Shown piece after piece: positions 4,774 through 54,852 of a stretch of DNA of 64,000 bases (its first letter is position 1; every line of letters begins with the position of its first letter). Both the position numbers and the translations under genes were made by a program. Source of the DNA: Candidatus Heimdallarchaeota archaeon (lineage in GTDB: Archaea; Asgardarchaeota; Heimdallarchaeia; Heimdallarchaeales; Heimdallarchaeaceae); NCBI GenBank assembly GCA_021399395.1, contig JAAFKJ010000043.1:18545-82544 (forward strand), written 5' to 3'. A model generated the notes under the pieces. It made no database searches. It was given only the letters and a program-made list of their open reading frames with translations, and was not told where the DNA came from.

Positions 4774-6159
4774 CTAATATTCTAAATGATATTTCTTAGC
4801 TTTACCCTTATGACTATCGATGAAAATCTTATCTCCTTCTGGACCATCTGGACCATCAATGAATTCTACGGGTTGTCCTGGCGATGCAAAAGCTGGTTCT
4901 TTAGGAGCTATAAATCTATATCCCTTATCATGTTTGAAGATTTGTAAAAACTCTGTTGGGTCATCATCTCTAGGACCAGTAACAACAAGTTTTGGTCCAA
5001 TCTGACTGAATAAAGATGTCCCCCAATCTGATTTGTAAATGCCTAATAAATCTTTGAAATCCTGTTGAGTTTCCTCTGGTTTAAGTTTATACTTCTCTTT
5101 GTCCTTTTCAATCTTAGCAAGAATTTTAATTATTCCAGTTGCTAGAACTAGCGCTGGCCCATTTACAGCATTTGTTAGTACAACCACTATTACCTTTTTA
5201 TCCTGAATAAGCCCAGATCTAGTAATAAACCCAGGGTACCCTCCACCATGACCAACGATTTTTATTCCAGGAAGCTCGGTGATACCAAAACCTAATCCCC
5301 AATTAATTTTCTCTGATTTAAACTGAATACGTTGCATTTCACGTTTGATGTAGTCTGGGAAGAGTGTATTATTACCAAATATGTGCGCTTTATAAAATTT
5401 GATTAAATCTTCTACAGTACTACTTAATCCTGTTGCTGAATGCATAACTTTAGCAGGGACATGCTCGAACTTTTCTCTATCTTGATTTGGATACTTAATT
5501 TTGTAACCTGTTGCATGTCTTGAAAGATTAGTCTCATCAACATCAATGATTGTGTTTTGCATATCGAGAGGATTAAGAATCTCATTTTGAATAAAATCAG
5601 GATAGCTTTGACCTGATACTGTTTCGATGATTTGTCCCAAGAGAGTAAAACCATAATTCGAGTACTTGAATACCTCACTTGTCTCGAAGAAACTAATCCC
5701 TTGCTCCACTTGAGCTTTTATTTCATCAATGGATGGAAATTCATGATTATACCAATGTGCAGTGGTGCCATCACGTGTCATTCCACTTGAGTGAGTAAGT
5801 AAATGTCTTATACGGATTTGTTTGATAGTTTCCTCTTTTTCTGAAGTGAACCAAGGTAGAAATTTGGATACTTTATCATCTAAAGAGAGTTTTTCTTCAT
5901 GATAGAGTTTCATGATTGCAGTCGCAGTAAAAAGTTTAGAATGTGATGCTATACGAAATAGATGTTGATTTGTTAGTTTAACTTTGTTTTCTAAATTTGC
6001 ATAACCATATTCTTTCTTGAAGATTATTTCATCTTCAACAAAAATTCCAACAGTGATACCAGGTATTTCTTTGATATATGTTTGGAAATCAAGCCAATTA
6101 TCAATAAGATGGAGACACTGCTTTGCAATACCTTTCTTTAACATAAAGCGAAAAAGCAA
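4774..6159 (-). CDS. beta-lactamase-family serine hydrolase (class C/PBP-like esterase or D-aminopeptidase family) with a C-terminal extra domain
   Basis: SxxK (ASHSK), YxN (YSNYG) and HGG (GHGGGYPG) motifs occur in canonical order. Confidence 0.7.
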   Translation of the reverse strand: MLFRFMLKKGIAKQCLHLIDNWLDFQTYIKEIPGITVGIFVEDEIIFKKEYGYANLENKVKLTNQHLFRIASHSKLFTATAIMKLYHEEKLSLDDKVSKFLPWFTSEKEETIKQIRIRHLLTHSSGMTRDGTTAHWYNHEFPSIDEIKAQVEQGISFFETSEVFKYSNYGFTLLGQIIETVSGQSYPDFIQNEILNPLDMQNTIIDVDETNLSRHATGYKIKYPNQDREKFEHVPAKVMHSATGLSSTVEDLIKFYKAHIFGNNTLFPDYIKREMQRIQFKSEKINWGLGFGITELPGIKIVGHGGGYPGFITRSGLIQDKKVIVVVLTNAVNGPALVLATGIIKILAKIEKDKEKYKLKPEETQQDFKDLLGIYKSDWGTSLFSQIGPKLVVTGPRDDDPTEFLQIFKHDKGYRFIAPKEPAFASPGQPVEFIDGPDGPEGDKIFIDSHKGKAKKYHLEY

Positions 6160-44059: not shown

Positions 44060-44779
44060 ATGGAAAAAAAACTTCTCAAACGAATGGAGAATTTCAAGAA
44101 TACTCCAGATCGCTTAAAATTCGAATTATTAAGAGAATTGTCCGAATTACCAGAAGAAGAACATATTACTAATTTTCTTCTCAATGTAGTTGAAAATGAG
44201 AAATATGATAGAATTCGAATAAATGCTATTCTTAATCTGAAAAAATATGAAAGTGATTTGATAGTTGAAAAACTCAAAATAATCTTCTCATTTGAGCGTG
44301 ATAAAAGTGTGAGACTTGTAATTGTTGAAACACTTGGAGAAAGAGACTCAGATGAAATTGAAGACTTTTTCCAACAAGTTGCTATTAAAGATCTTAATGA
44401 TATTGTACGTGCAACAGCTATTAGAAAACTCCATGAAAGGGAAAATATAGATCAAACCGTAATGCACGACTTACTATTAGATGTTATTCAGAATGATTCT
44501 TCTGTTTTTCCAAAACAAATTGCTCTAAGTGCTCTTCCATGTTACGCAACCTCAACCACTTATGACAAACTGAGAAATGTCTTCTTCAGAGAAGAAATGC
44601 TTCAAATGAAGAAACTTCTTTTTAAAACATTAGAAGAGATATCTACAAAATTTGAGTTGGATTTGGACGTAAAAGAACCAGGAGACCCTATATTTGAAGA
44701 CACTAAGAAAGCAAGAAGAAAAAGAAGAAAAGAACGTAAGAAGAAAAAATTGGATAAAGACGATTATCTTTATTTTTAA
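44060..44779 (+). CDS. HEAT-repeat protein with a C-terminal poly-basic tail
   Basis: Repeated xRxxAxxxL HEAT units (DRIRINAILNL, KSVRLVIVETLG, DIVRATAIRKL) and a KKARRKRRKERKKKK tail. Confidence 0.55.
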   Translation: MEKKLLKRMENFKNTPDRLKFELLRELSELPEEEHITNFLLNVVENEKYDRIRINAILNLKKYESDLIVEKLKIIFSFERDKSVRLVIVETLGERDSDEIEDFFQQVAIKDLNDIVRATAIRKLHERENIDQTVMHDLLLDVIQNDSSVFPKQIALSALPCYATSTTYDKLRNVFFREEMLQMKKLLFKTLEEISTKFELDLDVKEPGDPIFEDTKKARRKRRKERKKKKLDKDDYLYF

Positions 44780-44852
44780 TTATGAATCTGGTTTCTGAGC
44801 TACACACGTTATGAAACTTGGTTAAACTTGCCAGAGGCTTTTTAACCGTCGT

Positions 44853-46793
44853 CTAAGGTTGTCCCCTCACGTGTGTTGAGGGGAAGAGATCGTAAGGAAG
44901 AGGAGTACCCTTGAGGGAAGCGATGTTTAAAGCAGCATTCTCGTGAGAGTTGACCTGTTGACCACATTTTTTACAAGGGGCAACATCATGATGACCTTTA
45001 GCACGAGCAATCGTCCCTCCACAACCATAATGTCTGGTGCTGGTATGATAGGGGGGAACAGCTTCTAACTCTACATCATAGCTTAACTCTAGGGAAGCTA
45101 ACCAGACTGCTTTCTTGTAAATGTAAAGTTTATCAGGCATGTTATAGATGGCTTTAGCTAGCGCTCCTTTGGTACCGGTAGGGTCAGCGGTCAACTCCTC
45201 AATCTTCAGAGTCTGACACTGTTTCTTCACCATAACTGCAGCTAAGAAGTGAGGAAGACGACGAGTGATCTCACGGAGTAAACGGCTGCGACGCTGATAG
45301 ACTCGGTTGAGCTCACCCTTGAGCTTACACGAACCTCGAATATCGTAAACCTTGCGTTTGTTAAAGAACCCCTTATCTAATTCCTTGAGGACTTTATCTG
45401 TCAACTTCTGGTAACGTTTAGCTAACTTTAGCAAATCTGGAGGAAGTGGAACTGGAGTGTTAAATATCACCATATGCTGTCCCAAACGGTTGATATCTAC
45501 ACCTAACACTTTCTTCCTCCCTCTAGGAATGTAAGGGAGATAACTACGTAGGAGGGTAGAAGAGCGGAAAGAGGCATGGGATCCTTCTAGCACCACGTCT
45601 AAACTGGGTCTGAAACTAGGAGCTCTACCACTACTTACTTGGAACACTTTGAGTTCTGCACCATTCCGAATATACTCTAACACTTTTGGAGGAAACAGCA
45701 CTTGAGCAGAAAGCTTTTTCTTCCCTTTTAGAGGGAACCCTAAAGTGGTGGTTCCTTGCTTCTTGACTTGTCTGGTCAATTCACTTGCATTCCCTTCACG
45801 GGTAATAACATACTCTTTTTTCATTAATAGTTTGATTGATAATCTTCCTTGCTTTTTTCTTTTGAATGGGAGAGGAACAAGCTTGGCTACAGATAACCCT
45901 TGTAGTAACTGAGGGACACTCTGAATGATCTGGTCAAAGAGTGTGAAAACAACTATCTGCCTTACAGCAGAAAAGAGGTTTCGATTAGGGTTGCCTATTA
46001 TTGTTGCTAGTTCCTTAGCTAATTTCTTGAGACTTTTCCAACGAGATTTCTGATAACTGTTAATCCACGAAGTCACAAACGGTATGACTATCTGTTGCTC
46101 TTGTTTGAGGAGACGGAGTTTGTTCAGAAACGCTTGCTGGTTCTTTGAGAGAGAAGATAACTGGGCAAAGGTGTTGGTTTGGTAAGTTAGAGCGTCATCG
46201 ATTCCTTGTAAGACCTCCTGTTGAGTGTAAGAGGGTAAGGCTCCATTAAACACCAGATTGTTGGAGAAATAATGGTTCCTCTTTTTCTTTCTGCTATAAG
46301 AATCGAGTTGCATTCTTGAACTTGTCAACAGATTGATAATGTATCTTCGTTTTAGTTTCCAACGTTTCCCTAAACTACTTTCAGTGTAAGGGGAACGACC
46401 AAAGATTATCCACTCTACTTGTTGTTGAGGGTTCTTTTGCAGAAAGTTGAGTATGTTTTGCACTTTCTGTTCTTTATCCACTTTCCCTTTTACAGCTATC
46501 TGGAGCCAGTGGTAAGCACTTTCAGCGATGTTAGGGTTCTTACCTACAGCTTTCCCTACTTGGCGCACAAAGAAACGTTCTTTGGGATTGGCGCGATAGA
46601 TCTCAATTGCCTTTTTGACCACATCTTGAGGGAGGAGGTGGTATTGCCGTTCTTCTAACGTTCTGATTCGTTGATTAATTTCTTCTCGTTGGACTGATGA
46701 GTCACACTTTAGCGCTACCTGATAACTTCTCATCACTGTATCTAAGATAAGCGGGTGAGAGGTTTGAGAGGTGCTAACTGTTTGTGAGCTCAT
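44853..46793 (-). CDS. tnpB: TnpB/OrfB-like RuvC-fold nuclease with a C-terminal zinc finger (IS607/IS1341 type) and a ~200-aa N-terminal extension
   Basis: The C-terminal half has split RuvC-like motifs (LGVDINRLGQ...; LKIEELT; NSHENAALNIA) and a CxxC...CxxC finger (HYGCGG...CKKCGQQ). At 646 aa it is longer than typical TnpB. Confidence 0.75.
   Translation of the reverse strand: MSSQTVSTSQTSHPLILDTVMRSYQVALKCDSSVQREEINQRIRTLEERQYHLLPQDVVKKAIEIYRANPKERFFVRQVGKAVGKNPNIAESAYHWLQIAVKGKVDKEQKVQNILNFLQKNPQQQVEWIIFGRSPYTESSLGKRWKLKRRYIINLLTSSRMQLDSYSRKKKRNHYFSNNLVFNGALPSYTQQEVLQGIDDALTYQTNTFAQLSSLSKNQQAFLNKLRLLKQEQQIVIPFVTSWINSYQKSRWKSLKKLAKELATIIGNPNRNLFSAVRQIVVFTLFDQIIQSVPQLLQGLSVAKLVPLPFKRKKQGRLSIKLLMKKEYVITREGNASELTRQVKKQGTTTLGFPLKGKKKLSAQVLFPPKVLEYIRNGAELKVFQVSSGRAPSFRPSLDVVLEGSHASFRSSTLLRSYLPYIPRGRKKVLGVDINRLGQHMVIFNTPVPLPPDLLKLAKRYQKLTDKVLKELDKGFFNKRKVYDIRGSCKLKGELNRVYQRRSRLLREITRRLPHFLAAVMVKKQCQTLKIEELTADPTGTKGALAKAIYNMPDKLYIYKKAVWLASLELSYDVELEAVPPYHTSTRHYGCGGTIARAKGHHDVAPCKKCGQQVNSHENAALNIASLKGTPLPYDLFPSTHVRGQP
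44863..44883 (-). other. perfect 7-bp stem / 7-nt loop hairpin at the 3' end of tnpB (possible IS right-end or omega-RNA-associated structure)
   Basis: cccctca-cgtgtgt-tgagggg, read directly; it lies ~10 nt inside the 3' end of the TnpB reading frame. Confidence 0.5.
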
Positions 46794-46876
46794 CTTCTCT
46801 TCAACATATAATGAACAGATTAGTATTTAAGCTCGAGAAAACTCAACATTTTGGTGGTGCTTTTCCTCTCCGTTGT

Positions 46877-47110
46877 CTATGTAACCTTCCTGCGTTTTGT
46901 TCCACTCACTCTAGCGTATCCCAACACCACTTGGTTGTGTTGAAGATTGTTTTCCTCCTTCTCTTCTCCTATTATTTGTGCGAGTTTATATCTTCTATGT
47001 CCTCCCCTTGTTCTCCCGGAAGGGAGGAGTTTCTCTTCTCTTTCCCACCTTCTCAGTGTGCTAGCAGACACTCCTTGCATGGATGCTGCTATGCCAATTC
47101 TTACTAACAT
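46877..47110 (-). pseudogene. tnpA: truncated IS607-type tnpA (serine recombinase): MerR-like HTH plus the start of the catalytic domain only
   Basis: GVSASTLRRWEREEKLLPSGRTRGGHRRY is the IS607 TnpA HTH. The ORF stops right after VVLGYARVSG, the catalytic-Ser region, and the rest of the ~200-aa recombinase is absent. Confidence 0.6.
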
Positions 47111-47177
47111 ACCAGTTTTTTTGTTGTTCCTTTAGATAATGTTTGTGCTTTTTGGATAAGATTGAGTAAGTTTTCAC

Positions 47178-47819
47178 TCAGCAGTTGCTTACAGTCCAAA
47201 TGTATCCTCTTCTATCCTTTGGTCGGACCAACCTTACTTCTTTTGCAATAGAGTATAGTTCCCATCCTTTTAAAGCAGTTTTCAACTCAGTTGTTGTAAT
47301 AAATCTTAACGGAGGATCTGTTTTGAAATGAGGTTTTACATTACCTCCATAAAGAAGAAAACCTCCGGGTTTTACAGCTTCTATCAATTCTAACAATTTT
47401 GGTAAAGCTCCCTCATACAGATATTGCAGACATTGTATTGCTGAGATAACGTCATAACTTTCCGGTTGAAGTTCAAAAGTATCCATATCGGTCAGAAGAA
47501 TGTTCATCTTGTCGGTTACTCCCAAAGCTTCAGCTCTTTTTTCTGTGATTTCTATAGCTGAAGGGAGAATATCAACTGCGTCAACCTCAAATCCTAATTG
47601 AGCTAAGAAACAAGCATACCTGCCATCGCCAGTGCCGAATTCAAGAGCTTTTTTCCCCTCATGATCTTTCCCTTGAGTAAATAAGTAATATTCTTGTAAA
47701 GCATAATGGACATATTGTTGCGGCAACTCGTCAAGTTTGCCTTCCATCTGTTTTTTGTAAACATTGTCCCACCCGTCCATATATTTGTCAGGAACTAATG
47801 ACACGTATTTTTTCGACAT
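47178..47819 (-). CDS. class I SAM-dependent methyltransferase (TehB/TPMT-like small MTase)
   Basis: SAM-binding motif I (LEFGTGDGRYACFLAQLG) and post-I acidic residue (VDAVD) are present. Confidence 0.7.
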   Translation of the reverse strand: MSKKYVSLVPDKYMDGWDNVYKKQMEGKLDELPQQYVHYALQEYYLFTQGKDHEGKKALEFGTGDGRYACFLAQLGFEVDAVDILPSAIEITEKRAEALGVTDKMNILLTDMDTFELQPESYDVISAIQCLQYLYEGALPKLLELIEAVKPGGFLLYGGNVKPHFKTDPPLRFITTTELKTALKGWELYSIAKEVRLVRPKDRRGYIWTVSNC

Positions 47820-47952
47820 AAGATTAGAGAGTTTAGAACGCTTATAATCCTCTTGTATTATGCATGGAATGGGAGCAAGTAGTGGTTACTTAGATTTTTA
47901 AGCAAAAAAATTTAATTACATGTACAACCTTAAGGGAGAATAGGGAGATAAA

Positions 47953-49641
47953 ATGAACTATAAAAGAATCCTGATTGCAAGTGGTTTAATATTAATAGTA
48001 CTTAATTTAACACCTTCTTTTTCTGAAGCAAAAGAAAGTTCTCAAACCGATCCAAGCATAATTGTTAACCAAGACGTGGATTTCTATTTCAATGTTACAA
48101 CTATGCGTACAGATATTTCAATTCGAAGTGATGGTTCTATAGATATTTATTATCTAATTGAATTCTTTAATCATCCAAATTCTTCATATAGCGAGCCTAT
48201 ATGGGTTTTTGATATCGGTTTTCCAAACGTCTATTATGATCTCGATTCTGTAAGAGCAAAAATAAATGGTACAGAAGTTACGGAAATTAACAAAAGTCCT
48301 TATGTAGATATAGGCGTAGAAGTGATTTTCAATTCATTTGCTATTCCTTTGGGATACACTGGTGTTCTAGAAGTGTGGTGTCATAATCCAATAATGGTTT
48401 TTGAAGATGAAAATGAAGGCTTCGGATCCACTGTCTTTCTACAAACATGGTTTTATTGGGAATTTGTTTACAGTCAAACCTTTAGAACAGTTCGGTTTTA
48501 TTTCCCTGATGGCTTAGAAGACATAACTGTGGTGCAACCACGAGTTTATGAATACGGTGATTTTACAACATTTGTCCACCCCACAAATAGTTCTCTATCC
48601 TATGTTCAGTTTTATGACATAGGGTATCCTGATGATGGTTACTGGGTTGGCGTCGCCTTTCCTGAGGATTATGCAAGAATTTTCAGTTCATTTTGGCGAC
48701 TAAAAGTTTTCGGAAATATTCTCCAATATCCCATGTTTGCTGTTGTAATTTCTGTATTGATTCTTGGTTCCATTATTTTAATATTAAATAAAAGAAGAAA
48801 TAAAAGAAAATACCTTCCTCCATCAATCAGTTCTTTAGGCGGCGGAGTAAGAGAAAAACTAGACCCCTCTGACGTAGCGATTTTGCTTGAAAGACCCTTA
48901 ACGCAAGTTGCATCTCTGATGCTTTTTGAAATGATGGAGAAAGGGTATATCTCTGTGAAGAAAACTGAACCGGCCTTAAGGTTACAAGTAGTAATAGATT
49001 CCGAGAAAAAAGCACAGTTACTGAAACACGAAAAGGCAATTATTCGAGGTATTGAAAAACGCAATAAAGAAGATATAAAGTGGGAAAAAGGCGCATCACA
49101 TGGTGCTATACCTCCAGAACCAGTTCATCAAGATGAGATAAAAATAGCTATAGTTCATCAGATTAAATCGGTTACTAAGAAAATGAAAGGATTTTCAGCT
49201 AGAAAAACACGAGATTATTATGAAGCAATTATTGAAAGAGCTTGGCAAGAAATGAGTAAGTCAAACCCAGAACTGAAAAATGCGTTCTTATGGATAATGG
49301 TTGATGAAAAATATGAACAACAACTCGAAAAACAAGGAGCGGATTATTACTATCCTCGATGGTATGTAAGCAGTTATTATATCTACTTGGGACGTTCTTA
49401 TACACCATCAAGTAGAAGTCATTTTGTGAGGATTCCTAAGGGATCACGTATCCCTCATTCAAGACCTGCAAATACGTTTATGTCCGGTCTAATTCACAAA
49501 CCTCAATCTCTCCATAATTCAATTAGAAATGTAACCAGACCTCCATCAACATCAAGTGGAGGAAGATCTGGTGGTGGTAGCGGTGGTGGATGTGCATGCG
49601 CTTGTGCTTGTGCATGTGCTTGTGCAGGAGGCGGAAGATGA
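47953..49641 (+). CDS. signal-peptide/single-TM protein whose cytoplasmic C-terminus ends in a Gly/Ser linker plus a (Cys-Ala)6 tail; candidate substrate of the downstream radical SAM enzyme
   Basis: N-terminal signal (MNYKRILIASGLILIVLNL), a ~230-aa ectodomain, a TM near residue 260 followed by KRRNKRK, a ~280-aa cytoplasmic domain, then ...PPSTSSGGRSGGGSGGGCACACACACACAGGGR. The stop overlaps the next ATG (ATGA). Confidence 0.6.
   Translation: MNYKRILIASGLILIVLNLTPSFSEAKESSQTDPSIIVNQDVDFYFNVTTMRTDISIRSDGSIDIYYLIEFFNHPNSSYSEPIWVFDIGFPNVYYDLDSVRAKINGTEVTEINKSPYVDIGVEVIFNSFAIPLGYTGVLEVWCHNPIMVFEDENEGFGSTVFLQTWFYWEFVYSQTFRTVRFYFPDGLEDITVVQPRVYEYGDFTTFVHPTNSSLSYVQFYDIGYPDDGYWVGVAFPEDYARIFSSFWRLKVFGNILQYPMFAVVISVLILGSIILILNKRRNKRKYLPPSISSLGGGVREKLDPSDVAILLERPLTQVASLMLFEMMEKGYISVKKTEPALRLQVVIDSEKKAQLLKHEKAIIRGIEKRNKEDIKWEKGASHGAIPPEPVHQDEIKIAIVHQIKSVTKKMKGFSARKTRDYYEAIIERAWQEMSKSNPELKNAFLWIMVDEKYEQQLEKQGADYYYPRWYVSSYYIYLGRSYTPSSRSHFVRIPKGSRIPHSRPANTFMSGLIHKPQSLHNSIRNVTRPPSTSSGGRSGGGSGGGCACACACACACAGGGR
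49591..49626 (+). repeat. hexanucleotide microsatellite (TGYGCW)6 encoding the (Cys-Ala)6 tail
   Basis: The sequence tgtgca tgcgct tgtgct tgtgca tgtgct tgtgca is read directly from the window. Confidence 0.9.
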
Positions 49642-50981
49642 TGGATTTAACAGACATACTAAGCAGATTTGGAATAACAACAAAATCCAAAATGTCTCAT
49701 CAAAGAAATGTAGATACAACAGCGAGAATGCATTTGAGAAAAGAAAAGAAAGGAAAGAGTCTCTTGTTAGTAAATGCTACAATGATTTTCCACCTCAATA
49801 AGACAGCAACTGATTTTGCATCCCGAATAATCGATGGAAAAGATGATGCTGAAATCATCCGTGAGATGAAAAGAAAGTATCGTGTCTCAGAAGAACAACT
49901 GAAATCGGATTTGGATGATCTCAGAAACTCCATTACCAGGTTAATGGATGAACCCGATATCGATCCGGTTCAGCATTTGTCTCAAGATGTCAGTCCTCTT
50001 TTAGAAGCACCCTTCTCAGCTCCATTGCGAATGGATCTTGCTCTTACTTATAGGTGTAACAACAAATGCTCTAAGTGTTATGTTGAAAATTATAGGGATG
50101 TAAAGGAACTATCAACTATTGAATGGAAACAGGTTTTAGATACTCTTTGGGCGAGAGGGATTCCCCATGTTACTTTTACTGGTGGAGAACCTACAATGAG
50201 ACCTGATCTTCCAGAATTAGTCAAATATGCGGAGGACCTAGGAATCATAACTGGTCTGATATCCAACGGTAGAAAACTAAAAAACAAGAAATTAGTAAAC
50301 TCCCTCATAGAAGCAGGAATTGATCATTTTCAAATCACACTAGAAAGTCACGATGCTTCAGTTCACGACTCTTTAAGTGGAGAACGAGGTGCTTGGAAAG
50401 AAACAGTTGAAGGTATTAAGAACATCGTACCTACTCCAGTTTATATTATGACTAATACTACTCTAACTCCTTACAATGTAAAGGACATAGAAAAAACAGT
50501 CGAATTTTTACATTCTATAGGCATTGAACAATTTGCAGCAAATAGTATAATAAAATCTGGTGGAGGAAAACAGGAGGATATGGCACTCACTATAGAGGAA
50601 CTAGATGCGGCTATAACGAAGATTATGAATAAAGCAACTGAACTAGGGATGAAATTCATCTGGTATAGCCCAACAAGATATTGTGAATTTAATCCAATTG
50701 AGAAAGGATTGGGGATGAAACAATGCTCTGCTGCTCATATTGCCATGGCTATTGAACCAGATGGTGAAGTGATACCATGTCAAAGCTATTTCGAAACTCT
50801 AGGTAATATCCTTACAACAAGATGGAATAAAATCTGGAATCATAAAACTGCAAGGAAATTAAGGAATATGAAATATCTTCAAGAGGAATGCCTTGACTGC
50901 CCCGAAAGAGAAATTTGTGGTGGGGGATGTCCACTAAACTATGCCGCTCCAATGAATCTATGCAAAACTTCATTTTCTTAA
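49638..50981 (+). CDS. radical SAM/SPASM-domain maturase with an N-terminal PqqD-like RRE domain
   Basis: Residues ~40-105 match the PqqD/RRE pattern (LLLVNATMIFHLNKTATDFASRIIDGKDDAEIIREMKRKYRVSEEQL). The CxxxCxxC cluster (RCNNKCSKCY), the GGEP-type SAM motif (FTGGEPTMRPDL) and a C-terminal SPASM Cys cluster (CLDCPEREICGGGCP) are present. The start is reassigned to the ATG overlapping the upstream stop. Confidence 0.85.
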   Translation: MMDLTDILSRFGITTKSKMSHQRNVDTTARMHLRKEKKGKSLLLVNATMIFHLNKTATDFASRIIDGKDDAEIIREMKRKYRVSEEQLKSDLDDLRNSITRLMDEPDIDPVQHLSQDVSPLLEAPFSAPLRMDLALTYRCNNKCSKCYVENYRDVKELSTIEWKQVLDTLWARGIPHVTFTGGEPTMRPDLPELVKYAEDLGIITGLISNGRKLKNKKLVNSLIEAGIDHFQITLESHDASVHDSLSGERGAWKETVEGIKNIVPTPVYIMTNTTLTPYNVKDIEKTVEFLHSIGIEQFAANSIIKSGGGKQEDMALTIEELDAAITKIMNKATELGMKFIWYSPTRYCEFNPIEKGLGMKQCSAAHIAMAIEPDGEVIPCQSYFETLGNILTTRWNKIWNHKTARKLRNMKYLQEECLDCPEREICGGGCPLNYAAPMNLCKTSFS

Positions 50982-50990
50982 TTTTTCCTG

Positions 50991-51746
50991 GTGTCTGAGA
51001 TGTCTAAAGATGTTGACTGGGGTCCAAAAATCCATGAACAATTTAGAAGACAAGCAAAGTGGACAGAAGATTTTAGAAAACAAATCTATCGTCAAGTGAG
51101 CTTAAAAAGTGCTAAACGAGTTCTAGAAGTGGGGTGTGGAACAGGTGTAATTGCAGAGGAGTTGAAACAGAAATCTAATGCAAAGATAACCGCCATTGAT
51201 ATTGATGAAAGAATGATAAAAATTGCAGAAGAGAATGTGAAAGACGTTCAATTTTTGGTTGAGAACGCGGAAAAAATGTCAATGAAGGATAATTTCTTTG
51301 ATGTAATCTTTTGTCAGTATCTGTTTTTGTGGTTACCAAATCCCAAACAAGCTCTTAGGGAGATGGTAAGGGTGTGTAAGAAAGGAGGATATATTGTAGC
51401 TTTAGCAGAACCCGATTATGGAGCTTGGTTAGAATACCCTGAAATGGATTTAGGGAAAAAACATATTAAATATTTAGAAAAAGAAGGGGCTGATCCACTA
51501 ATGGGTCGTAAGTTGCTAAGTTTATTTGAAGAAGCAGGATTACAAACATACCTGGTAACTATAGCTCAAAGTTGGAACCAAGAGAATCTTCGAAACAATA
51601 TTGAAGAAGAATGGAAAAGAGTATTGGAAGCAGATTTGATATCAGAAGAGGAATATTCGAAAATAATAGAGAAAGAATTTGAGCTAATCGATAAAAACCA
51701 AAGAATGATTTTTATGCCAGTTTTTTGTGCAATAGGCAAGAAATAG
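50991..51746 (+). CDS. class I SAM-dependent methyltransferase
   Basis: Motif I (VLEVGCGTGVIAEEL), the post-I acidic residue (AIDIDE) and motif II/III spacing are present. It starts 10 nt after the rSAM stop. Confidence 0.75.
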   Translation: MSEMSKDVDWGPKIHEQFRRQAKWTEDFRKQIYRQVSLKSAKRVLEVGCGTGVIAEELKQKSNAKITAIDIDERMIKIAEENVKDVQFLVENAEKMSMKDNFFDVIFCQYLFLWLPNPKQALREMVRVCKKGGYIVALAEPDYGAWLEYPEMDLGKKHIKYLEKEGADPLMGRKLLSLFEEAGLQTYLVTIAQSWNQENLRNNIEEEWKRVLEADLISEEEYSKIIEKEFELIDKNQRMIFMPVFCAIGKK

Positions 51747-51765
51747 ATTAAAAATAGAAGAAAAA

Positions 51766-51890
51766 TGGTCGGGCCTCCGTGATTTGAACACGGGACCGCT
51801 CGGTAAATGCGACTGACAACTTGTTCACTGTTTCCTCACAAGTGCGATTTCTCTACAGCCGAGTGCTCTAAGCCACTGAGCTAAGGCCCG
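51766..51890 (-). tRNA. tRNA-Tyr(GUA) with a ~49-nt intron in the anticodon loop and an encoded 3' CCA
   Basis: Hand-folded from the reverse complement. Acceptor stem CGGGCCU/AGGCCCG, D-arm GCUC...GAGC, anticodon stem CUCGG/CCGAG with loop CUGUAGA, T-arm CCGUG-UUCAAAU-CACGG, discriminator A plus CCA. The intron lies between the anticodon loop and the 3' anticodon-stem strand. Confidence 0.7.
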
Positions 51891-52079
51891 GATTTTTGAT
51901 TCATCAACCTAAATTGATGCGTCTACTCTGTTTGCAATTTACTTTCTTCTTAAATTTTTCTTTTCTATTCCATATTCTAACTTAATCGATCTGGTTCTAT
52001 CTTTGAAAGAAAATGCTTTGGAATTACCCCATTTAAGTAAACTTAAAAACATGTTCTTGTATATTTTCACACGATAATT

Positions 52080-52571
52080 ATGAGTGAATCTAACGTGCAT
52101 TTGTATAAACTGCAAGAGCGTCAATATGATATTGAGGCAGATCTCTATAAAAGATTAGGCGAACTTCAGGACTTGAGAAAAAAGATAGCTGAACAAAATA
52201 AAGGAAAATCTAAGGACCATAGAGAAAAGGAACAACATCTTATAAAAAAGGCTGAGTTTGAGGAGAGGGGCTTACCTGATAAAGCATTAAAGAGTGAAGT
52301 TAAAGCAATGAACCAAGATACTCAGATAGCTAAGAAAGATGCTAAGATTAAGGAACTTGAACGTAGAATTCGTAATGTTGAGGAAGAAATTGAAGAAATT
52401 GAATCTGAGTTGAGTGAGGCTGAAGCTGATGTTAAGGCTCATGAGACCGGCGCTCCTGTTGATGAACCGGAAGACAACTATGAAGAATCCTATGAACCTG
52501 CTGTTCTTGATGATTCCGAAGAGGAAGAATCTGAATCTGATTCAGTTAATGATCTAAGTTATCAAGATTAG
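52080..52571 (+). CDS. hypothetical acidic coiled-coil protein
   Basis: 163 aa, Glu/Lys-rich heptads and an acidic Ser/Glu-rich tail. Confidence 0.45.
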   Translation: MSESNVHLYKLQERQYDIEADLYKRLGELQDLRKKIAEQNKGKSKDHREKEQHLIKKAEFEERGLPDKALKSEVKAMNQDTQIAKKDAKIKELERRIRNVEEEIEEIESELSEAEADVKAHETGAPVDEPEDNYEESYEPAVLDDSEEEESESDSVNDLSYQD

Positions 52572-52620
52572 AGTTTTTTTCTTCTTTTCATATTTATTTT
52601 CTTATTTTTGTCTTTCCAAG
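52572..52620 (+). terminator. oligo-T terminator candidate downstream of the coiled-coil gene
   Basis: A T7 run and further T-rich stretches directly follow the stop. Confidence 0.3.
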
Positions 52621-52665
52621 AAATTTATTTATAGCTAAAGTTTTTCTTTTTCCAGGTGACATTCT

Positions 52666-53049
52666 ATGGAACTATATGGAACAGCTGATTGGAAAACAGA
52701 AAAACATGTACCAGTAATTGAATCTCCTGATGTAGTTGGAATAGGTAAGAAGACTCCTATCACAGTGAGTGTTGGAAAAGAAATTGCTCATCCTAATAAG
52801 ACCGAGCATCATATCTCTTGGATCAAACTAATGTTTTGGCCAGTAGATGAAAAATATCCTTACCAAATAGGATTAGCAAATTTTGATGCACATGGCGCAT
52901 CTATTAAGGGTCCAGATACCAGTGGGATCTACTCTGAACCTTTTGCAGTCTTTCAACTAATTACAGACAAACCAGGAAAACTTATTGCAACTTCATATTG
53001 TAATATTCATGGTTTCTGGAAATTTGAAAAAGAAATCAAAGTAGAGTAA
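52666..53049 (+). CDS. sor: superoxide reductase (1Fe-SOR, neelaredoxin type)
   Basis: The iron-ligand motifs (EKHVPVIE, HPNKTEHHI, CNIHGFW) match 1Fe-SOR, e.g. the P. furiosus enzyme, almost block for block; 127 aa. Confidence 0.85.
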   Translation: MELYGTADWKTEKHVPVIESPDVVGIGKKTPITVSVGKEIAHPNKTEHHISWIKLMFWPVDEKYPYQIGLANFDAHGASIKGPDTSGIYSEPFAVFQLITDKPGKLIATSYCNIHGFWKFEKEIKVE

Positions 53050-53066
53050 TTTATTACTCTCTCTCT

Positions 53067-53987
53067 TTATTTTTTACCATTAGCATCTGTTAGTAATTTA
53101 GTTATAGTTTCTCCTAGATCTTCTGGTTGTTCATAATTCTGCTTAATAATATCATAATCTTCTCCTTTAACCTCCCTTTTTCTATATTTTAAAGGATCTA
53201 GGAAGTAAAGTGCAAAAATTATTGCGCCTATGACAGCAGCTGAAACACCAACGATTATAATTACTACATTGCTAGGAATTGTGCTACGAAGAACAATAGT
53301 AATTTCATGATTTCCTGGACTCAAGATATCAGTTACTAAATATAATTCTTGGTCTTCTAAATCGGTCAGTACCTTTTGGTTTTTGATAACGTACATACTT
53401 TCCAAATATTCATTCCAGTTTGATTCATAACTGGGGTGATAGAATGAAAACCAGAGAATGGCGCTAATATCTTCAAATGCTGAACTGAAATGTAAATTAT
53501 AATACCCTCTCTTCAGTGTTTCAATTGGAAACACTTTGTAATCAATAATACTCCCAGAATTAAAACTCCAACAAAAGATCTTATTCTTGTGTGAAAAACC
53601 GTTTATCTCATCATTAACTGTTAATGTGAAACTTTCTATGCTAATCGATATTTCCAGTGTTTGAGTATTTGGGTTATCTATCGTTAGTGCGAATGAGCCT
53701 GTGCCAATAAATGTCACAACAAGATTCTTTGTATAACTGGTTCGAGCAGCAACCAATCCGTCATATTGATCCTTTATATCTAGACTATAAGGTATCTCTG
53801 AGATAGAATTATCTACTTCAATAATGAATACGCTTCCAGTTTCTTCTGAAAATTCTATTATTAAATTCGAATTACCTTCAATTTGGTAACTTGCCTCTGC
53901 ATTTGCTTTATTTGATATAAAAGGTGAAAATAAAACAATAAAGATACAAAAAACAACAATTTTATTCCCTCGTAACATTGTACCCAA
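53067..53987 (-). CDS. hypothetical secreted protein with a C-terminal TM anchor
   Basis: Signal peptide, a beta-rich ectodomain, then a TM (IIIVGVSAAVIGAIIFALYFL) and a short cytoplasmic tail. Confidence 0.45.
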   Translation of the reverse strand: MGTMLRGNKIVVFCIFIVLFSPFISNKANAEASYQIEGNSNLIIEFSEETGSVFIIEVDNSISEIPYSLDIKDQYDGLVAARTSYTKNLVVTFIGTGSFALTIDNPNTQTLEISISIESFTLTVNDEINGFSHKNKIFCWSFNSGSIIDYKVFPIETLKRGYYNLHFSSAFEDISAILWFSFYHPSYESNWNEYLESMYVIKNQKVLTDLEDQELYLVTDILSPGNHEITIVLRSTIPSNVVIIIVGVSAAVIGAIIFALYFLDPLKYRKREVKGEDYDIIKQNYEQPEDLGETITKLLTDANGKK

Positions 53988-54078
53988 CAGGTAAACTACT
54001 CGTTCAAATATTTAAAACTTGATATTCAAATTGGTGTTTTCCAGTAAGATTAAAATTCATAGAAGATTATTTTGTATC

Positions 54079-54852
54079 ATGGAAGATTCAGATTTACTAG
54101 AATCTAAAGTATTATTTGAGTTGTTGTTGAAAGATGGTGATTCCCCCTTCTCCGGATGGGACTTCTCTCATATTGAAAATAGACGGGTAACAGCTCCATT
54201 AACTTGGAGCTATAGCACAGAGATACTCCCACATATCCGAATTGTTAACTCTATGCTCGATATGGGAACAGGTGGAGGAGAGTTTCTGTTACAACTTGCA
54301 CCTTTCCCACCTCATACTTGTGCGACAGAATCCTATGATCCAAATGTAATTATTGCTAAGAATCGTTTGAATCCTTTAGGTATAAACGTTGTAAAGATCG
54401 AGGGTGATGACACTCTTCCTTTCGAAGATGGGGAATTTGAGTTAGTAATAAATAGACATGAATCCTTCTCGATAGATGAAGTATATAGAATTCTTACTCC
54501 AGGTGGGTATTTTATTTCTCAGCAAGTAGGTGGAAAAAATGATCAACTTTTAAGAGAAATAATGGGGAGTAAAAAGAAAAGTGATTATGAACAATGGGAT
54601 TTAGATTATGAAATTAACGAATTAGAAGATAATGGATTTGTAGTATTAAAGAAAAAAGAAGCATTTCCGATAACCCGATTCTTTGACGTTGGTGCAATAG
54701 TTTTTTACTTCTTATCTATTCCTTGGGAATTACCTGGTTTTACTGTCGAGAAGTATCGTGAAAAACTCTGGGAAATTCATAATGTAATTGAAGATAATGG
54801 TTATATTGATGTTATCAGCCATCGATTTTTATTCAAAGCTCAAAGAAACTAA
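54079..54852 (+). CDS. class I SAM-dependent methyltransferase
   Basis: Motif I (LDMGTGGGEF) and a post-I acidic residue are present. The start is reassigned to the internal Met (MEDSDLL). Confidence 0.6.
   Translation: MEDSDLLESKVLFELLLKDGDSPFSGWDFSHIENRRVTAPLTWSYSTEILPHIRIVNSMLDMGTGGGEFLLQLAPFPPHTCATESYDPNVIIAKNRLNPLGINVVKIEGDDTLPFEDGEFELVINRHESFSIDEVYRILTPGGYFISQQVGGKNDQLLREIMGSKKKSDYEQWDLDYEINELEDNGFVVLKKKEAFPITRFFDVGAIVFYFLSIPWELPGFTVEKYREKLWEIHNVIEDNGYIDVISHRFLFKAQRN

Follow-up and report, generated by a model that had tools for sequence, protein, structure and literature searches.

A Cys-Ala tail on a membrane protein and a linked RRE/radical SAM/SPASM enzyme: a putative protein-maturation cassette of anaerobic archaea and bacteria

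The window analysed here, a 64,000-nucleotide stretch of Candidatus Heimdallarchaeota contig JAAFKJ010000043.1, encodes a membrane protein that ends in a Cys-Ala repeat and, directly downstream, a radical SAM enzyme and a methyltransferase. Does the enzyme modify the end of the protein encoded next to it? We favour, with a probability of roughly 0.6, a conserved protein-maturation cassette in which the cytoplasmic tail, still part of its protein, is modified by the enzyme through a chemistry that is only inferred. The locus has the following features.

47178-47819, minus strand: divergent TehB-like methyltransferase gene, 213 aa (Pfam)
47953-51746, plus strand: three-gene cassette (tail protein, RRE/radical SAM/SPASM enzyme, class I methyltransferase)
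47953-49641, plus strand: CA-tail membrane protein gene, 562 aa (open reading frame; AlphaFold2 model)
47953-48027, plus strand: N-terminal signal or anchor helix, residues 1-25, MNYKRILIASGLILIVLNLTPSFSE (sequence; AlphaFold2)
48088-48663, plus strand: extracellular beta-sandwich domain, residues 46-237
48730-48807, plus strand: single transmembrane helix, residues 260-285 (AlphaFold2), then basic residues (NKRRNKRK) and an invariant motif, KYLPP
48808-49500, plus strand: cytoplasmic folded domain, residues 286-516 (AlphaFold2), with a winged-helix-like start; the helical bundle after it contains the MKGFS motif
49501-49545, plus strand: leader-like conserved motif, residues 517-531, ending in SIRNVTRPP (conservation, 67 sequences)
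49546-49590, plus strand: Ser/Gly/Arg-rich flexible linker, residues 532-546 (sequence; pLDDT below 50)
49591-49626, plus strand: (Cys-Ala)6 core, residues 547-558 (Cys and Ala columns invariant across the family)
49627-49641, plus strand: C-terminal GGGR (49627-49638) and TGA stop, which overlaps the enzyme start codon
49638-50981, plus strand: RRE/radical SAM/SPASM enzyme, 447 aa (Pfam), the proposed tail maturase
49692-49946, plus strand: N-terminal RRE/PqqD-like domain, residues about 19-103 (Pfam PqqD; AlphaFold2)
50055-50078, plus strand: CxxxCxxC cluster motif, C140, C144 and C147 (invariant in 60 aligned orthologues)
50682-50963, plus strand: SPASM auxiliary-cluster region, C349, C363, C381, C418, C421, C427, C431 and C442
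50991-51746, plus strand: class I SAM-dependent methyltransferase, 251 aa (Pfam Methyltransf_11, 94 bits), the third cassette gene

All three genes lie where a preliminary description, made from the sequence alone, had placed them. The ATGA overlap it reported between the tail-protein stop (TGA, 49639-49641) and the enzyme start (ATG at 49638) was also confirmed in the window sequence, and only the distance from the radical SAM stop to the methyltransferase start (GTG at 50991) was slightly off, at 9 nt rather than 10. The TehB-like methyltransferase adjoins the tail protein elsewhere only in one Heimdall locus (L005, 66% identity), and its membership in the cassette is doubtful.

The translated C-terminus reads PPSTSSGGRSGGGSGGG-CACACACACACA-GGGR, so that the protein ends in GGG-(CA)6-GGGR. 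Across the family the tails follow the consensus (CA)n[G/S](CA)nGGGR with G559, G560, G561 and R562 invariant, despite protein bodies that are only 25–30% identical. The number of Cys-Ala units varies, being 5–6 contiguous units in Heimdall and 3+3, 4+3, 3+4 or 5+3 in other lineages, so that a tail carries from 5 to 8 or more cysteines without obvious pairing of donors and acceptors. The residue before every tail cysteine is small (Gly, Ser or Ala), and the alanine after it is near-invariant. The end CACACAGGGR is shared by 81 genes that spell it in 80 different ways at the nucleotide level; every synonymous codon occurs among them, and each of the six Arg codons and of the three stop codons is represented. 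Because identical ends on such divergent bodies are coded by so many different DNA sequences, the tail is under extreme protein-level selection, far beyond chance, and is not low-complexity noise. In one Bathyarchaeota member, an in-frame TGA falls precisely at a tail cysteine position; it could possibly encode selenocysteine, or else reflect a sequencing error or a pseudogene mutation. Upstream of the core by 15–30 residues lies the conserved leader-like motif, in which P530 is invariant and F520, T525, T528 and P531 are kept in at least 90% of 67 sequences. We propose residues 517–531 as the docking site of the RRE, an inference without binding data.

The AlphaFold2 model of the tail protein (mean pLDDT 81.5) comprises a hydrophobic helix (3–19), a beta-sandwich ectodomain (46–237), a transmembrane helix (260–285), a cytoplasmic fold (about 300–530) and a disordered tail (534–562, pLDDT below 50). 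It agrees with the previously described signal peptide, single transmembrane segment, cytoplasmic domain and flexible end. The protein would thus be bitopic, its N-terminus exposed on the outside and its C-terminus facing the cytoplasm, and the model predicts a tail that is accessible, being disordered and cytoplasmic. Y287, P289 and P290 of the KYLPP motif are invariant in the family alignments, as are M411, G413 and S415 of the MKGFS motif among 67 sequences. We regard the protein as a distant DUF2207-like membrane protein. It shares with DUF2207 and TIGR04222 a beta-sandwich ectodomain, a transmembrane helix, a cytoplasmic winged-helix-like module and a Gly-rich C-terminal end, with a weak DUF2207_C match at residues 308–379. 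Such matches remain below the curated cut-offs (DUF2207_C, best E-value 1e-4, in 6 of 67 members; TIGR04222, E-value 0.006); the Cys-Ala-GGGR tail and the linkage to a radical SAM enzyme are features of the tail-protein subfamily.

The tail protein has 78 homologues, and the family comprises 1271 representative clusters, with members in Heimdall-, Hod-, Loki- and Bathyarchaeia and about ten bacterial phyla. The tail is kept in at least 306 species genomes of Archaea and Bacteria. Among 145 new representatives, gathered without a word index, 127 carry it, and the others are truncated or frameshifted. Frameshifted copies of the tail protein occur in metagenomes. A search for the tail pattern gave 127 matches, none of them on another protein family or a stand-alone small precursor; 114 have the family body, and the 13 others are incomplete, either running into a contig end or carrying a frameshift. 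The preliminary description had assigned the tail to a large protein instead of a small precursor and had made its reading depend on homologues that carry the tail and are linked to radical SAM genes; all of this held. Of 65 genome loci, 58 have an active radical SAM gene and one more has a frameshifted copy; in 49 the gene follows the tail gene directly. In an independent set of 73 metagenome loci, 66 have the active gene, which comes right after the tail gene in 54, so that the share is about 90% in both samples. In the reverse direction, six of six look-ups starting from the enzyme, including Bathy- and Lokiarchaeia, found a tail protein within 4 kb. About 10% of the loci have no active radical SAM gene nearby, which could sit elsewhere in those genomes; among the 65, L017, L035 and L074 contain none, L053 keeps only the methyltransferase, and L019 and L065 keep only a pseudo-enzyme. 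A methyltransferase orthologue occurs in 48 of 65 loci and is missing from about a quarter; the cassette methyltransferase has no NCBIfam equivalog. Neighbouring LigA, RlmI-like, ABC ATPase and PhoU genes represent lineage synteny only.

Pfam domains, conserved cluster cysteines and structural matches together show an enzyme with every element expected of a peptide maturase. The PqqD-like RRE (residues 48–95, 27.7 bits against a cut-off of 23.4), Radical_SAM (136–291, 87.7 bits) and SPASM (363–422, 42.8 bits) domains all exceed the Pfam cut-offs, in line with the earlier domain assignment. The AlphaFold2 model (pTM 0.87) shows strands at residues 19–53 and then helices at 55–103 in the RRE region. 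CxxxCxxC is found in 64 of 65 locus orthologues, and the SPASM-region cysteines are invariant or kept in at least 90% of the 60 aligned sequences. The enzyme has more than 5000 homologues, which are about 50% identical across phyla. A referee might ask whether it belongs to a clade acting on something other than peptides. None of the NCBIfam equivalog cut-offs, including those of NirJ, AhbD, PqqE, MoaA, SkfB and AlbA, was reached, and the best full-length structural neighbours in Foldseek are the RRE-bearing peptide maturases SkfB, SuiB and CteB, so this check came out in favour of the preliminary description. The lipid-modifying GDGT-MAS is also among the structural matches. HMM scores are roughly equidistant between tetrapyrrole enzymes (NirJ2, AhbD) and peptide maturases; the enzyme sequence by itself therefore does not fix the type of reaction.

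The closest known systems might indicate what that reaction is. The thioether synthases SkfB, AlbA and CteB (RRE-rSAM-SPASM/twitch) share the N-terminal RRE, CxxxCxxC core and C-terminal auxiliary clusters, and SkfB is the best match both in sequence among solved structures (E-value 2.5e-24) and in fold (E-value 9e-20, TM-score 0.65/0.75). As in sactipeptide systems, a Cys-rich substrate would be encoded directly upstream of the enzyme. However, the enzyme falls far below the sactipeptide cut-offs (SkfB, 106 against 300; AlbA, 87.5 against 850; StsB, 79 against 625), the proposed substrate is the C-terminus of a 562-residue membrane protein rather than a precursor of 30–60 residues, and the cassette differs in lacking a protease or exporter, in a core that is invariant across phyla and in its occurrence in both archaea and bacteria. 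QhpD, a radical SAM/SPASM enzyme, sets Cys thioethers in QhpC, which stays a functional protein (PMC7876137), as we propose for the tail protein. QhpC is the small periplasmic gamma subunit of quinohemoprotein amine dehydrogenase, with Cys-Asp/Glu links and a CTQ cofactor, whereas the target here would be a repeat tail on the cytoplasmic extension of a membrane protein; among the annotated genes of the window, none was recognised as one of the other genes of a qhp operon. SCIFF/ranthipeptide (six-Cys-in-forty-five) targets are Cys-rich, highly conserved, housekeeping-like and widespread in anaerobes without an obvious antibiotic role. They resemble the tail as conserved Cys-rich targets of a SPASM maturase in anaerobes, but SCIFF peptides are free, about 45 residues long and mostly confined to Clostridia, and they have no Cys-Ala repeat, GGGR end or membrane protein body; the enzyme scores 78 against the cut-off of 340 of PapB-type models.

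On this basis we suggest the following mechanism, for which there is no chemical evidence that the tail is modified at all. The disordered cytoplasmic end would consist of the leader-like motif (...VT[R/K/N]PxP), a Ser/Gly linker, the (Cys-Ala)n core and the invariant GGGR-COOH. The translationally coupled enzyme would dock the tail through its N-terminal RRE, and its radical SAM cluster and two SPASM auxiliary clusters would modify the core at the cysteines. Thioethers are the usual outcome of RRE-rSAM-SPASM enzymes acting on Cys-rich cores (AlbA, SkfB, CteB, PapB, QhpD), and the reaction we favour is the formation of intramolecular thioethers, each joining a Cys sulfur to a carbon of a neighbouring residue in the manner of sactipeptides, ranthipeptides and QhpD products. 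The adjacent methyltransferase might then methylate the product, for example, a leftover thiol or the C-terminal carboxylate. Because the motif occurs only on the tail-protein family and no conserved protease or exporter was found in 80 genome loci, the modified tail probably remains attached to the membrane protein, where it would have a structural or prosthetic role, without release of a natural product. The computational checks support the RiPP-like maturation originally proposed for the locus, while its sactionine-type thioethers and methylation remain inference only. No Pfam or NCBIfam model covers the system, and no description of it was found in the literature searched. Since these three genes, so far undescribed as a group, occur together in hundreds of anaerobes from both Archaea and Bacteria, their product is probably a protein modification that is new.

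Radical SAM/SPASM enzymes are also known to act on cysteine in other ways: SbtM forms a thiooxazole and anSME formylglycine. The same substrate might undergo a different reaction, with each X-Cys oxidised to a 5-thiooxazole or another oxidised form, so that the tail becomes a conjugated metal-chelating element at the inner membrane face with methylation as tailoring. SbtM, which turns Gly-Cys/Sec into thio(seleno)oxazole (PMC9204691), provides the precedent; the small residue before every cysteine, the unpaired cysteine counts and the possible Sec tail in one Bathyarchaeota genome would fit such chemistry. We consider it unlikely: the enzyme scores 76.8 bits against the SbtM cut-off of 350, taxa and precursor differ, the reaction is not known to us beyond one radical SAM enzyme family, the TGA may be an error or a mutation, and the near-invariant alanine is no better explained.

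It is also improbable that the tail is not a substrate, serving as an unmodified metal- or Fe-S-binding element, or as a docking handle by which the enzyme is recruited to or serviced at the membrane, with the true target of the enzyme being, for example, a lipid or a cofactor. In support, CxC repeats bind Cu(I) and Zn unmodified, as in the C-terminal motif of CopY (PMC12648655), the radical SAM core does not discriminate between NirJ2/AhbD and peptide maturases, GDGT-MAS is a structural match, and some genomes keep the tail protein without an active enzyme nearby. However, an enzyme-fused RRE is a hallmark of peptide substrates, the best full-length matches are peptide maturases, the exact C-terminal spacing, invariant Ala and GGGR exceed the needs of metal binding, and the operon contains no other conserved candidate substrate gene.

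A classical RiPP with a giant leader, in which the crosslinked tail would be cleaved at the Ser/Gly linker and leave the cell as a small bioactive peptide, is very unlikely. The order of leader-like motif, linker and core does resemble a RiPP precursor, and RiPP gene clusters often pair a radical SAM enzyme with methyltransferase tailoring. Against this stand the missing protease and transporter, the absence of the motif from stand-alone small precursors, the conservation of the body of about 500 residues, including ectodomain and transmembrane helix, across two domains of life, and a core that is invariant where those of secreted RiPPs are typically hypervariable. Finally, a functionless low-complexity or microsatellite artefact of (TGYGCN)n slippage, to which the varying copy number and frameshifted metagenome copies might point, is all but excluded, being ruled out by 80 distinct DNA sequences for the same 10 residues and by retention of the tail across so many species.

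Returning to the maturation cassette, two more genes commonly accompany it in bacteria: one for a pseudo-radical-SAM paralogue that has lost its cluster, and one for a small zinc-ribbon protein with two transmembrane helices. Both are absent from this archaeal window and were for that reason missing from the preliminary description. The paralogue lacks CxxxCxxC in 42 of 45 cases, the three exceptions being a truncated open reading frame and two unrelated radical SAM genes in one locus (L045). The haloarchaeal TIGR04347 pseudo-SAM/SPASM family is a precedent for such a protein without cluster cysteines, but the scores are below its cut-off (40.6–122 bits against 525), and taxa and context differ. 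In most bacteria, the paralogue, which retains its RRE, would probably chaperone the tail, and the zinc-ribbon protein might be a further partner. One natural fusion (P0319, 948 aa) joins the pseudo-radical-SAM/RRE module to the tail protein.

The ORFs and Pfam domains of the cassette support the preliminary description in every material point, and its parts are arranged as follows:

47953-49641, + strand: gene of the tail protein, an ORF of 562 residues with the C-terminus ...PPSTSSGGRSGGGSGGG-CACACACACACA-GGGR
49639-49641, + strand: TGA stop codon of the tail gene, overlapping the ATG at 49638 of the enzyme ORF
49638-50981, + strand: enzyme ORF of 447 residues with Pfam PqqD, Radical_SAM, and SPASM domains
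50991 (GTG start) to 51746, + strand: class I methyltransferase, 9 nt after the enzyme ORF

The claims that the 562-residue protein ends in a Cys-Ala stretch followed by GGGR, that its stop codon overlaps the start of the enzyme gene, and that the enzyme contains a PqqD-like RRE, a radical SAM, and a SPASM domain all held; the methyltransferase had been placed 10 nt downstream, and the measured gap is 9 nt. The GC content of the window is 33-39%, and homologue searches identified the nearest relatives of all three cassette proteins in Heimdallarchaeia. The reading we favor, with a probability of roughly 0.6, is that the enzyme modifies the Cys-Ala tail in place on the tail protein, although the chemistry is inferred. 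The expected tryptic C-terminal peptide of the tail protein is SGGGSGGGCACACACACACAGGGR.

The Cys-Ala end is the hallmark of the tail-protein family. The first homologue search, with candidates pre-selected by shared 5-mers, returned 78 proteins from Heimdallarchaeota and Anaerolineales with 24-55% identity to the query, and all full-length members end in (CA)n[G/S](CA)nGGGR. Because such an index might favor tail-bearing matches, every protein was also searched with an index-free profile, which gave 1271 representative clusters with E no higher than 1e-3; at a limit of 1e-30, 468 remained. Of the 145 newly listed representatives, 127 have this tail or one close to it (e.g. CACACACVSCACACAGGGAR), and the other 18 were partial ORFs or frameshifted inside the repeat. 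The tail was thus still near-universal, word-index bias was rejected as its explanation, and the expectation that homologues carry the tail was met. Alignments of 21 and 67 sequences have a single invariant block, the C-terminal C-A-C-A-C-A-G-G-G-R, and few other conserved positions (KYLPP after the TM helix, MKGFS, and T-x-P-P directly before the linker). Among 81 genes with identical CACACAGGGR ends, the last 33 nt differ in 80, and they use every codon available for Cys (two), Ala (four), Gly (four), and Arg (six), as well as each of the three stops. This diversity of synonymous codons indicates purifying selection at the protein level and not a DNA microsatellite. Metagenome contigs scanned with a degenerate DNA pattern yielded 127 tail-type ends, and an HMM that excludes the tail assigned the family body to 114 of them; the remaining 13 were cut by contig ends or frameshifted, and the scan revealed no small stand-alone ORF with the motif. 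Members of the family are conserved membrane proteins of 520-600 residues, and a scan of one genome per species found a relative in at least 306 genomes.

The AlphaFold2 model of the tail protein (67 sequences, mean pLDDT 81.5) predicts the following layout:

residues 3-19: signal or anchor helix
residues 46-237: beta-sandwich ectodomain, modeled with confidence
residues 260-285: single TM helix, followed by a strongly basic stretch
residues 300-530: cytoplasmic domain with a winged-helix-like unit at its start
residues 534-562: disordered end

This topology is compatible with the layout of DUF2207 proteins (ectodomain, TM helix, cytoplasmic module, and Gly-rich C-terminus), without a direct structural comparison. 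The gathering scores of DUF2207 (PF09972/PF20990) were not met, with 13 bits for the window protein against a DUF2207_C cut-off of 33, and weak DUF2207_C matches occurred in six of the 67 family members (best E 1e-4). The system could offer a first functional handle on the large, uncharacterised DUF2207-like superfamily.

The enzyme has the complete build of an RRE-dependent radical SAM/SPASM peptide maturase; covalent modification by it is inferred. Pfam matches comprise PqqD at residues 48-95 (27.7 bits, cut-off 23.4), Radical_SAM at residues 136-291 (87.7 bits), and SPASM at residues 363-422 (42.8 bits, cut-off 21.5). In 60 aligned orthologues, the CxxxCxxC cysteines for the SAM-binding [4Fe-4S] cluster (C140, C144, and C147) are invariant, and eight cysteines of the SPASM region (C349, C363, C381, C418, C421, C427, C431, and C442) are invariant or at least 90% conserved. 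The auxiliary-cluster motif CX9-15GX4C ... CX2CX5CX3C ... C is found in 63 of the 65 locus orthologues, and this conservation suggests a full SPASM domain with two auxiliary clusters. The family is very large and unusually conserved, with ~45-50% identity between archaeal and bacterial members. None of the named NCBIfam radical SAM equivalogs (NirJ, AhbC/D, PqqE, MftC, SkfB, AlbA, StsB, PapB, SbtM, WgkB, GeoRSP, ScmE/F, and MoaA) reached its cut-off, the best being NirJ2 (144 bits against 500), followed by PqqE (139 against 381), SkfB (106 against 300), and AlbA (87.5 against 850). The orthologue from the bacterium Bellilinea likewise reached none, and membership in a named family was ruled out. 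The nearest sequences with solved structures are SkfB (E 2.5e-24) and PqqE. The AlphaFold2 model (pTM 0.87) has an N-terminal beta-sheet with helices at residues 19-103, as expected for an RRE, and its top full-length Foldseek matches are SkfB (E 9e-20, TM 0.65/0.75), SuiB, and CteB. Whereas the RRE-bearing SkfB and SuiB match over the full length, BlsE and PqqE match only the core, and anSME is only a mid-rank match. Because no equivalog cut-off was approached and the best full-length folds are SkfB, SuiB, and CteB, the enzyme likely stands outside the cofactor-biosynthesis and sulfatase-maturase clades; placement in a clade that does not modify peptides would have weakened the preliminary description, and the scores and folds favor it instead.

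The pairing of tail gene and enzyme gene is conserved well beyond Heimdallarchaeia. Eighty loci were retrieved from the species-level genome scan, covering Heimdall- and Hodarchaeota, Anaerolineae including the cultured Ornatilinea apprima, Levilinea saccharolytica, and Bellilinea caldifistulae, and also Acidobacteriota, Aminicenantes, Zixibacteria, Cloacimonadota, Fermentibacteria, Edwardsbacteria, Armatimonadota, and one deltaproteobacterium. In the 65 loci whose sequence extends 3 kb or more downstream of the tail gene, an active radical SAM orthologue (40-75% identity, CxxxCxxC present) was found in 58, in addition to one frameshifted copy, and it lay immediately downstream in 49; a methyltransferase orthologue was present in 48 and a second radical SAM paralogue in 38. 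Independent metagenome loci gave the enzyme in 66 of 73, directly downstream in 54, so that the anticipated linkage of tail-protein homologues to a radical SAM gene held in both sets. In the reverse direction, six enzyme homologues from different lineages were looked up, among them one on a Bathyarchaeota chromosome and others on Promethearchaeota (Loki) and Schekmanbacteria contigs; each of the six lies within 4 kb of a gene for a tail-bearing protein. About 10% of loci (L017, L035, L074, L053, L019, and L065) lack a nearby active enzyme, as judged from the nearby sequence and not from whole genomes. In one of these, the Edwardsbacteria locus L017 (9660-10698), the tail gene is followed by ORFs that resemble by eye cysteine synthase and serine acetyltransferase, and no radical SAM gene lies within 8 kb of it. 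In three other loci (L013, L031, and L060), the tail gene occurs in two tandem copies, both with the (CA)3G(CA)4GGGR variant, and the active and pseudo radical SAM genes are located upstream of the tail genes, not downstream.

Clustering of the ORFs at the 80 loci identified F2, a pseudo-radical-SAM gene, and the methyltransferase as the only further conserved genes, and no conserved protease or exporter family nearby. LigA, an RlmI-like methyltransferase, an ABC ATPase, and PhoU were rejected as system genes since they reflect only Anaerolineae synteny. F2, a membrane protein of ~120 residues, has two TM helices and a zinc ribbon (CxxC...CPYC), ends in a near-invariant EEPKW, and matches no Pfam or NCBIfam model. 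It lies directly upstream of the tail gene in 67 of 73 loci (L006-L080; e.g. L079 7531-7905), and an HMM search found it in neither the window nor the other Heimdall loci; both accessory genes, F2 and the pseudo-enzyme, occur outside the Heimdall clade. An EEPTW variant was noticed in the archaeal contig L087 (3050-3397). Among the second radical SAM paralogues, 42 of 45 lack both the CxxxCxxC and the SPASM cysteines; CxxxCxxC persists in only three, of which one is a truncated ORF and two are unrelated radical SAM genes of a single locus (L045). The pseudo-enzyme (the second radical SAM gene of L012-L080) retains a GGEP motif, and the only one scanned (L079, 10945-12210) keeps the PqqD-like N-terminus. 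In L019, L065, L015, and L047, no other radical-SAM-like gene adjoins the tail protein. Moreover, the metagenomic protein P0319 (948 residues) has a pseudo-radical-SAM/RRE module (~residues 20-330) fused to a complete tail protein with a CACACAGCACACACAGGGR end; this is a single predicted protein without genomic context. The pseudo-enzyme and the natural fusion might be a useful case for the reuse of RRE modules as chaperones. The cassette methyltransferase is a generic class I enzyme, for which neither NCBIfam nor the nearest solved relatives, plant phosphoethanolamine N-methyltransferases and LahSB, provided a specific assignment. LahSB is a methyltransferase acting in lanthipeptide biosynthesis.

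The tail is invariant, and the model predicts it to be cytoplasmic and disordered; it is translationally coupled to the enzyme, and the pairing has been conserved in both archaea and bacteria. In the favored reading, the RRE would dock a conserved motif at residues ~520-531, and the (Cys-Ala)n core would enter the active site, where 5'-deoxyadenosyl radical chemistry aided by the auxiliary clusters would modify the tail cysteines. No covalent modification has been demonstrated. Thioethers are the usual outcome for Cys-rich substrates of RRE-radical SAM-SPASM enzymes. We infer thioether crosslinking as the favored chemistry because it is usual for the class and because the near-invariant Ala residues could serve as carbon acceptors. 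The earlier proposal of sactionine-type crosslinks or methylation has the same standing, namely inference from the enzyme class without chemical evidence. The methyltransferase may cap a leftover thiol or the invariant C-terminal carboxylate, which would also explain the fixed GGGR-COOH spacing. The product likely stays on the tail protein, an inference drawn from the conserved body and the absence of linked processing or export genes.

Among the alternatives, thiooxazole formation on the tail cysteines, for which SbtM is a radical SAM precedent (PMC9204691), is consistent with a small residue preceding every Cys and with Cys numbers that vary. It would also fit a possible Sec codon in one Bathyarchaeota tail. 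This tail (L081 ~5917-5999, CP070659.1) reads ...KARCVCA[TGA]ASCACACACVSCACACAGGGAR*, with an in-frame TGA at precisely one of the Cys positions in the alternating pattern; the related archaeal contig L087 encodes Cys there, and the TGA may represent selenocysteine, a sequencing error, or a pseudogene. However, the enzyme scores only 76.8 bits against the SbtM model TIGR04082 (cut-off 350), and we consider this chemistry unlikely. Improbable as well is an unmodified tail that binds metal or serves in docking while the enzyme acts on another substrate. A RiPP released from the tail protein is very unlikely, given that there is no short precursor, no conserved protease or exporter at the 80 loci, and no small ORF with the motif. 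A low-complexity artefact is refuted by the 80 DNA sequences among 81 genes.

A bolder reading, which we consider slightly more likely than not and in which the chemistry is inferred, would be an undescribed post-translational modification system of Asgard archaea, Bathyarchaeia, and ~10 phyla of anaerobic bacteria. The enzyme and methyltransferase, together with a bacterial pseudo-enzyme chaperone, would turn the (Cys-Ala)n-GGGR tail into a protein-borne structure acting at the cytoplasmic membrane face, possibly a poly-thioether ladder or a poly-thiooxazole metal site. If true, this structure would be a new protein-derived prosthetic group and not a natural product.

The working principle resembles that of sactipeptide, ranthipeptide, and QhpD-type maturation, yet the cassette belongs to none of them. 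Sactipeptide and ranthipeptide pathways cleave and export a short precursor, whereas the cassette has a membrane-protein substrate of 520-600 residues and no conserved protease or transporter; their Cys-to-carbon thioethers are inferred for the cassette from the enzyme class alone. QhpC/QhpD had been cited as a precedent, but the qhp context was not found, as Pfam scans of ten ORFs across 44060-54852, two without a family match, detected none of QhpA, QhpB, QhpC, QhpE, and QhpG. Unlike anSME, which lacks an RRE and acts on sulfatase-type C/S-x-P-x-R, the cassette enzyme has an RRE, and CxPxR is absent from the tail. None of the cassette products (tail protein, enzyme subfamily, methyltransferase) or accessory proteins (F2, pseudo-enzyme) is covered by a Pfam or NCBIfam model (June 2026 release), and neither motif nor system is described in the full text searched, including one RiPP-radical SAM compendium paper. 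Within these limits, the view that the Cys-Ala core family is undescribed held; subscription journals were mostly outside the search, and therefore an earlier description is not fully excluded. The enzyme class is known; the substrate type, invariant core, accessory genes, and archaeal-plus-bacterial distribution are new within the literature and models searched.

Almost all that is known of radical SAM/SPASM maturases comes from small secreted peptides and a handful of cofactor precursors. In the cassette, this machinery is linked to a conserved membrane protein, at its cytoplasmic tail. The invariance of the core from Heimdallarchaeia to Chloroflexota suggests a housekeeping modification, its chemistry and function unknown, that would extend through much of the anaerobic and mostly uncultured biosphere. 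The last 30-60 residues of the tail protein make a short test substrate for the discovery of radical SAM chemistry, and the native product could be searched for in the three cultured Anaerolineae (B. caldifistulae, L. saccharolytica, and O. apprima).

The divergent TehB-like methyltransferase (47178-47819, - strand) is kept as a neighbor of the tail protein only in the Heimdall locus L005 and was therefore excluded from the core. Downstream, synteny with the cassette in Heimdall loci L001-L005 extends to a coiled-coil acidic protein (52080-52571), a desulfoferrodoxin/neelaredoxin (52666-53049), and a membrane protein (53067-53987, - strand); the genes of 52080-53987 likely reflect lineage synteny rather than membership in the system. 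Comparison with L005 places a TnpB-like element between a HEAT-repeat gene and the divergent methyltransferase. The element (44853-47110, - strand) comprises an ORF for an unusually long TnpB-like protein of 646 residues, with a Cas12f1-like TNB domain at residues 572-624, followed by a 77-residue fragment that resembles a MerR-type HTH and the start of an IS607-type serine recombinase.
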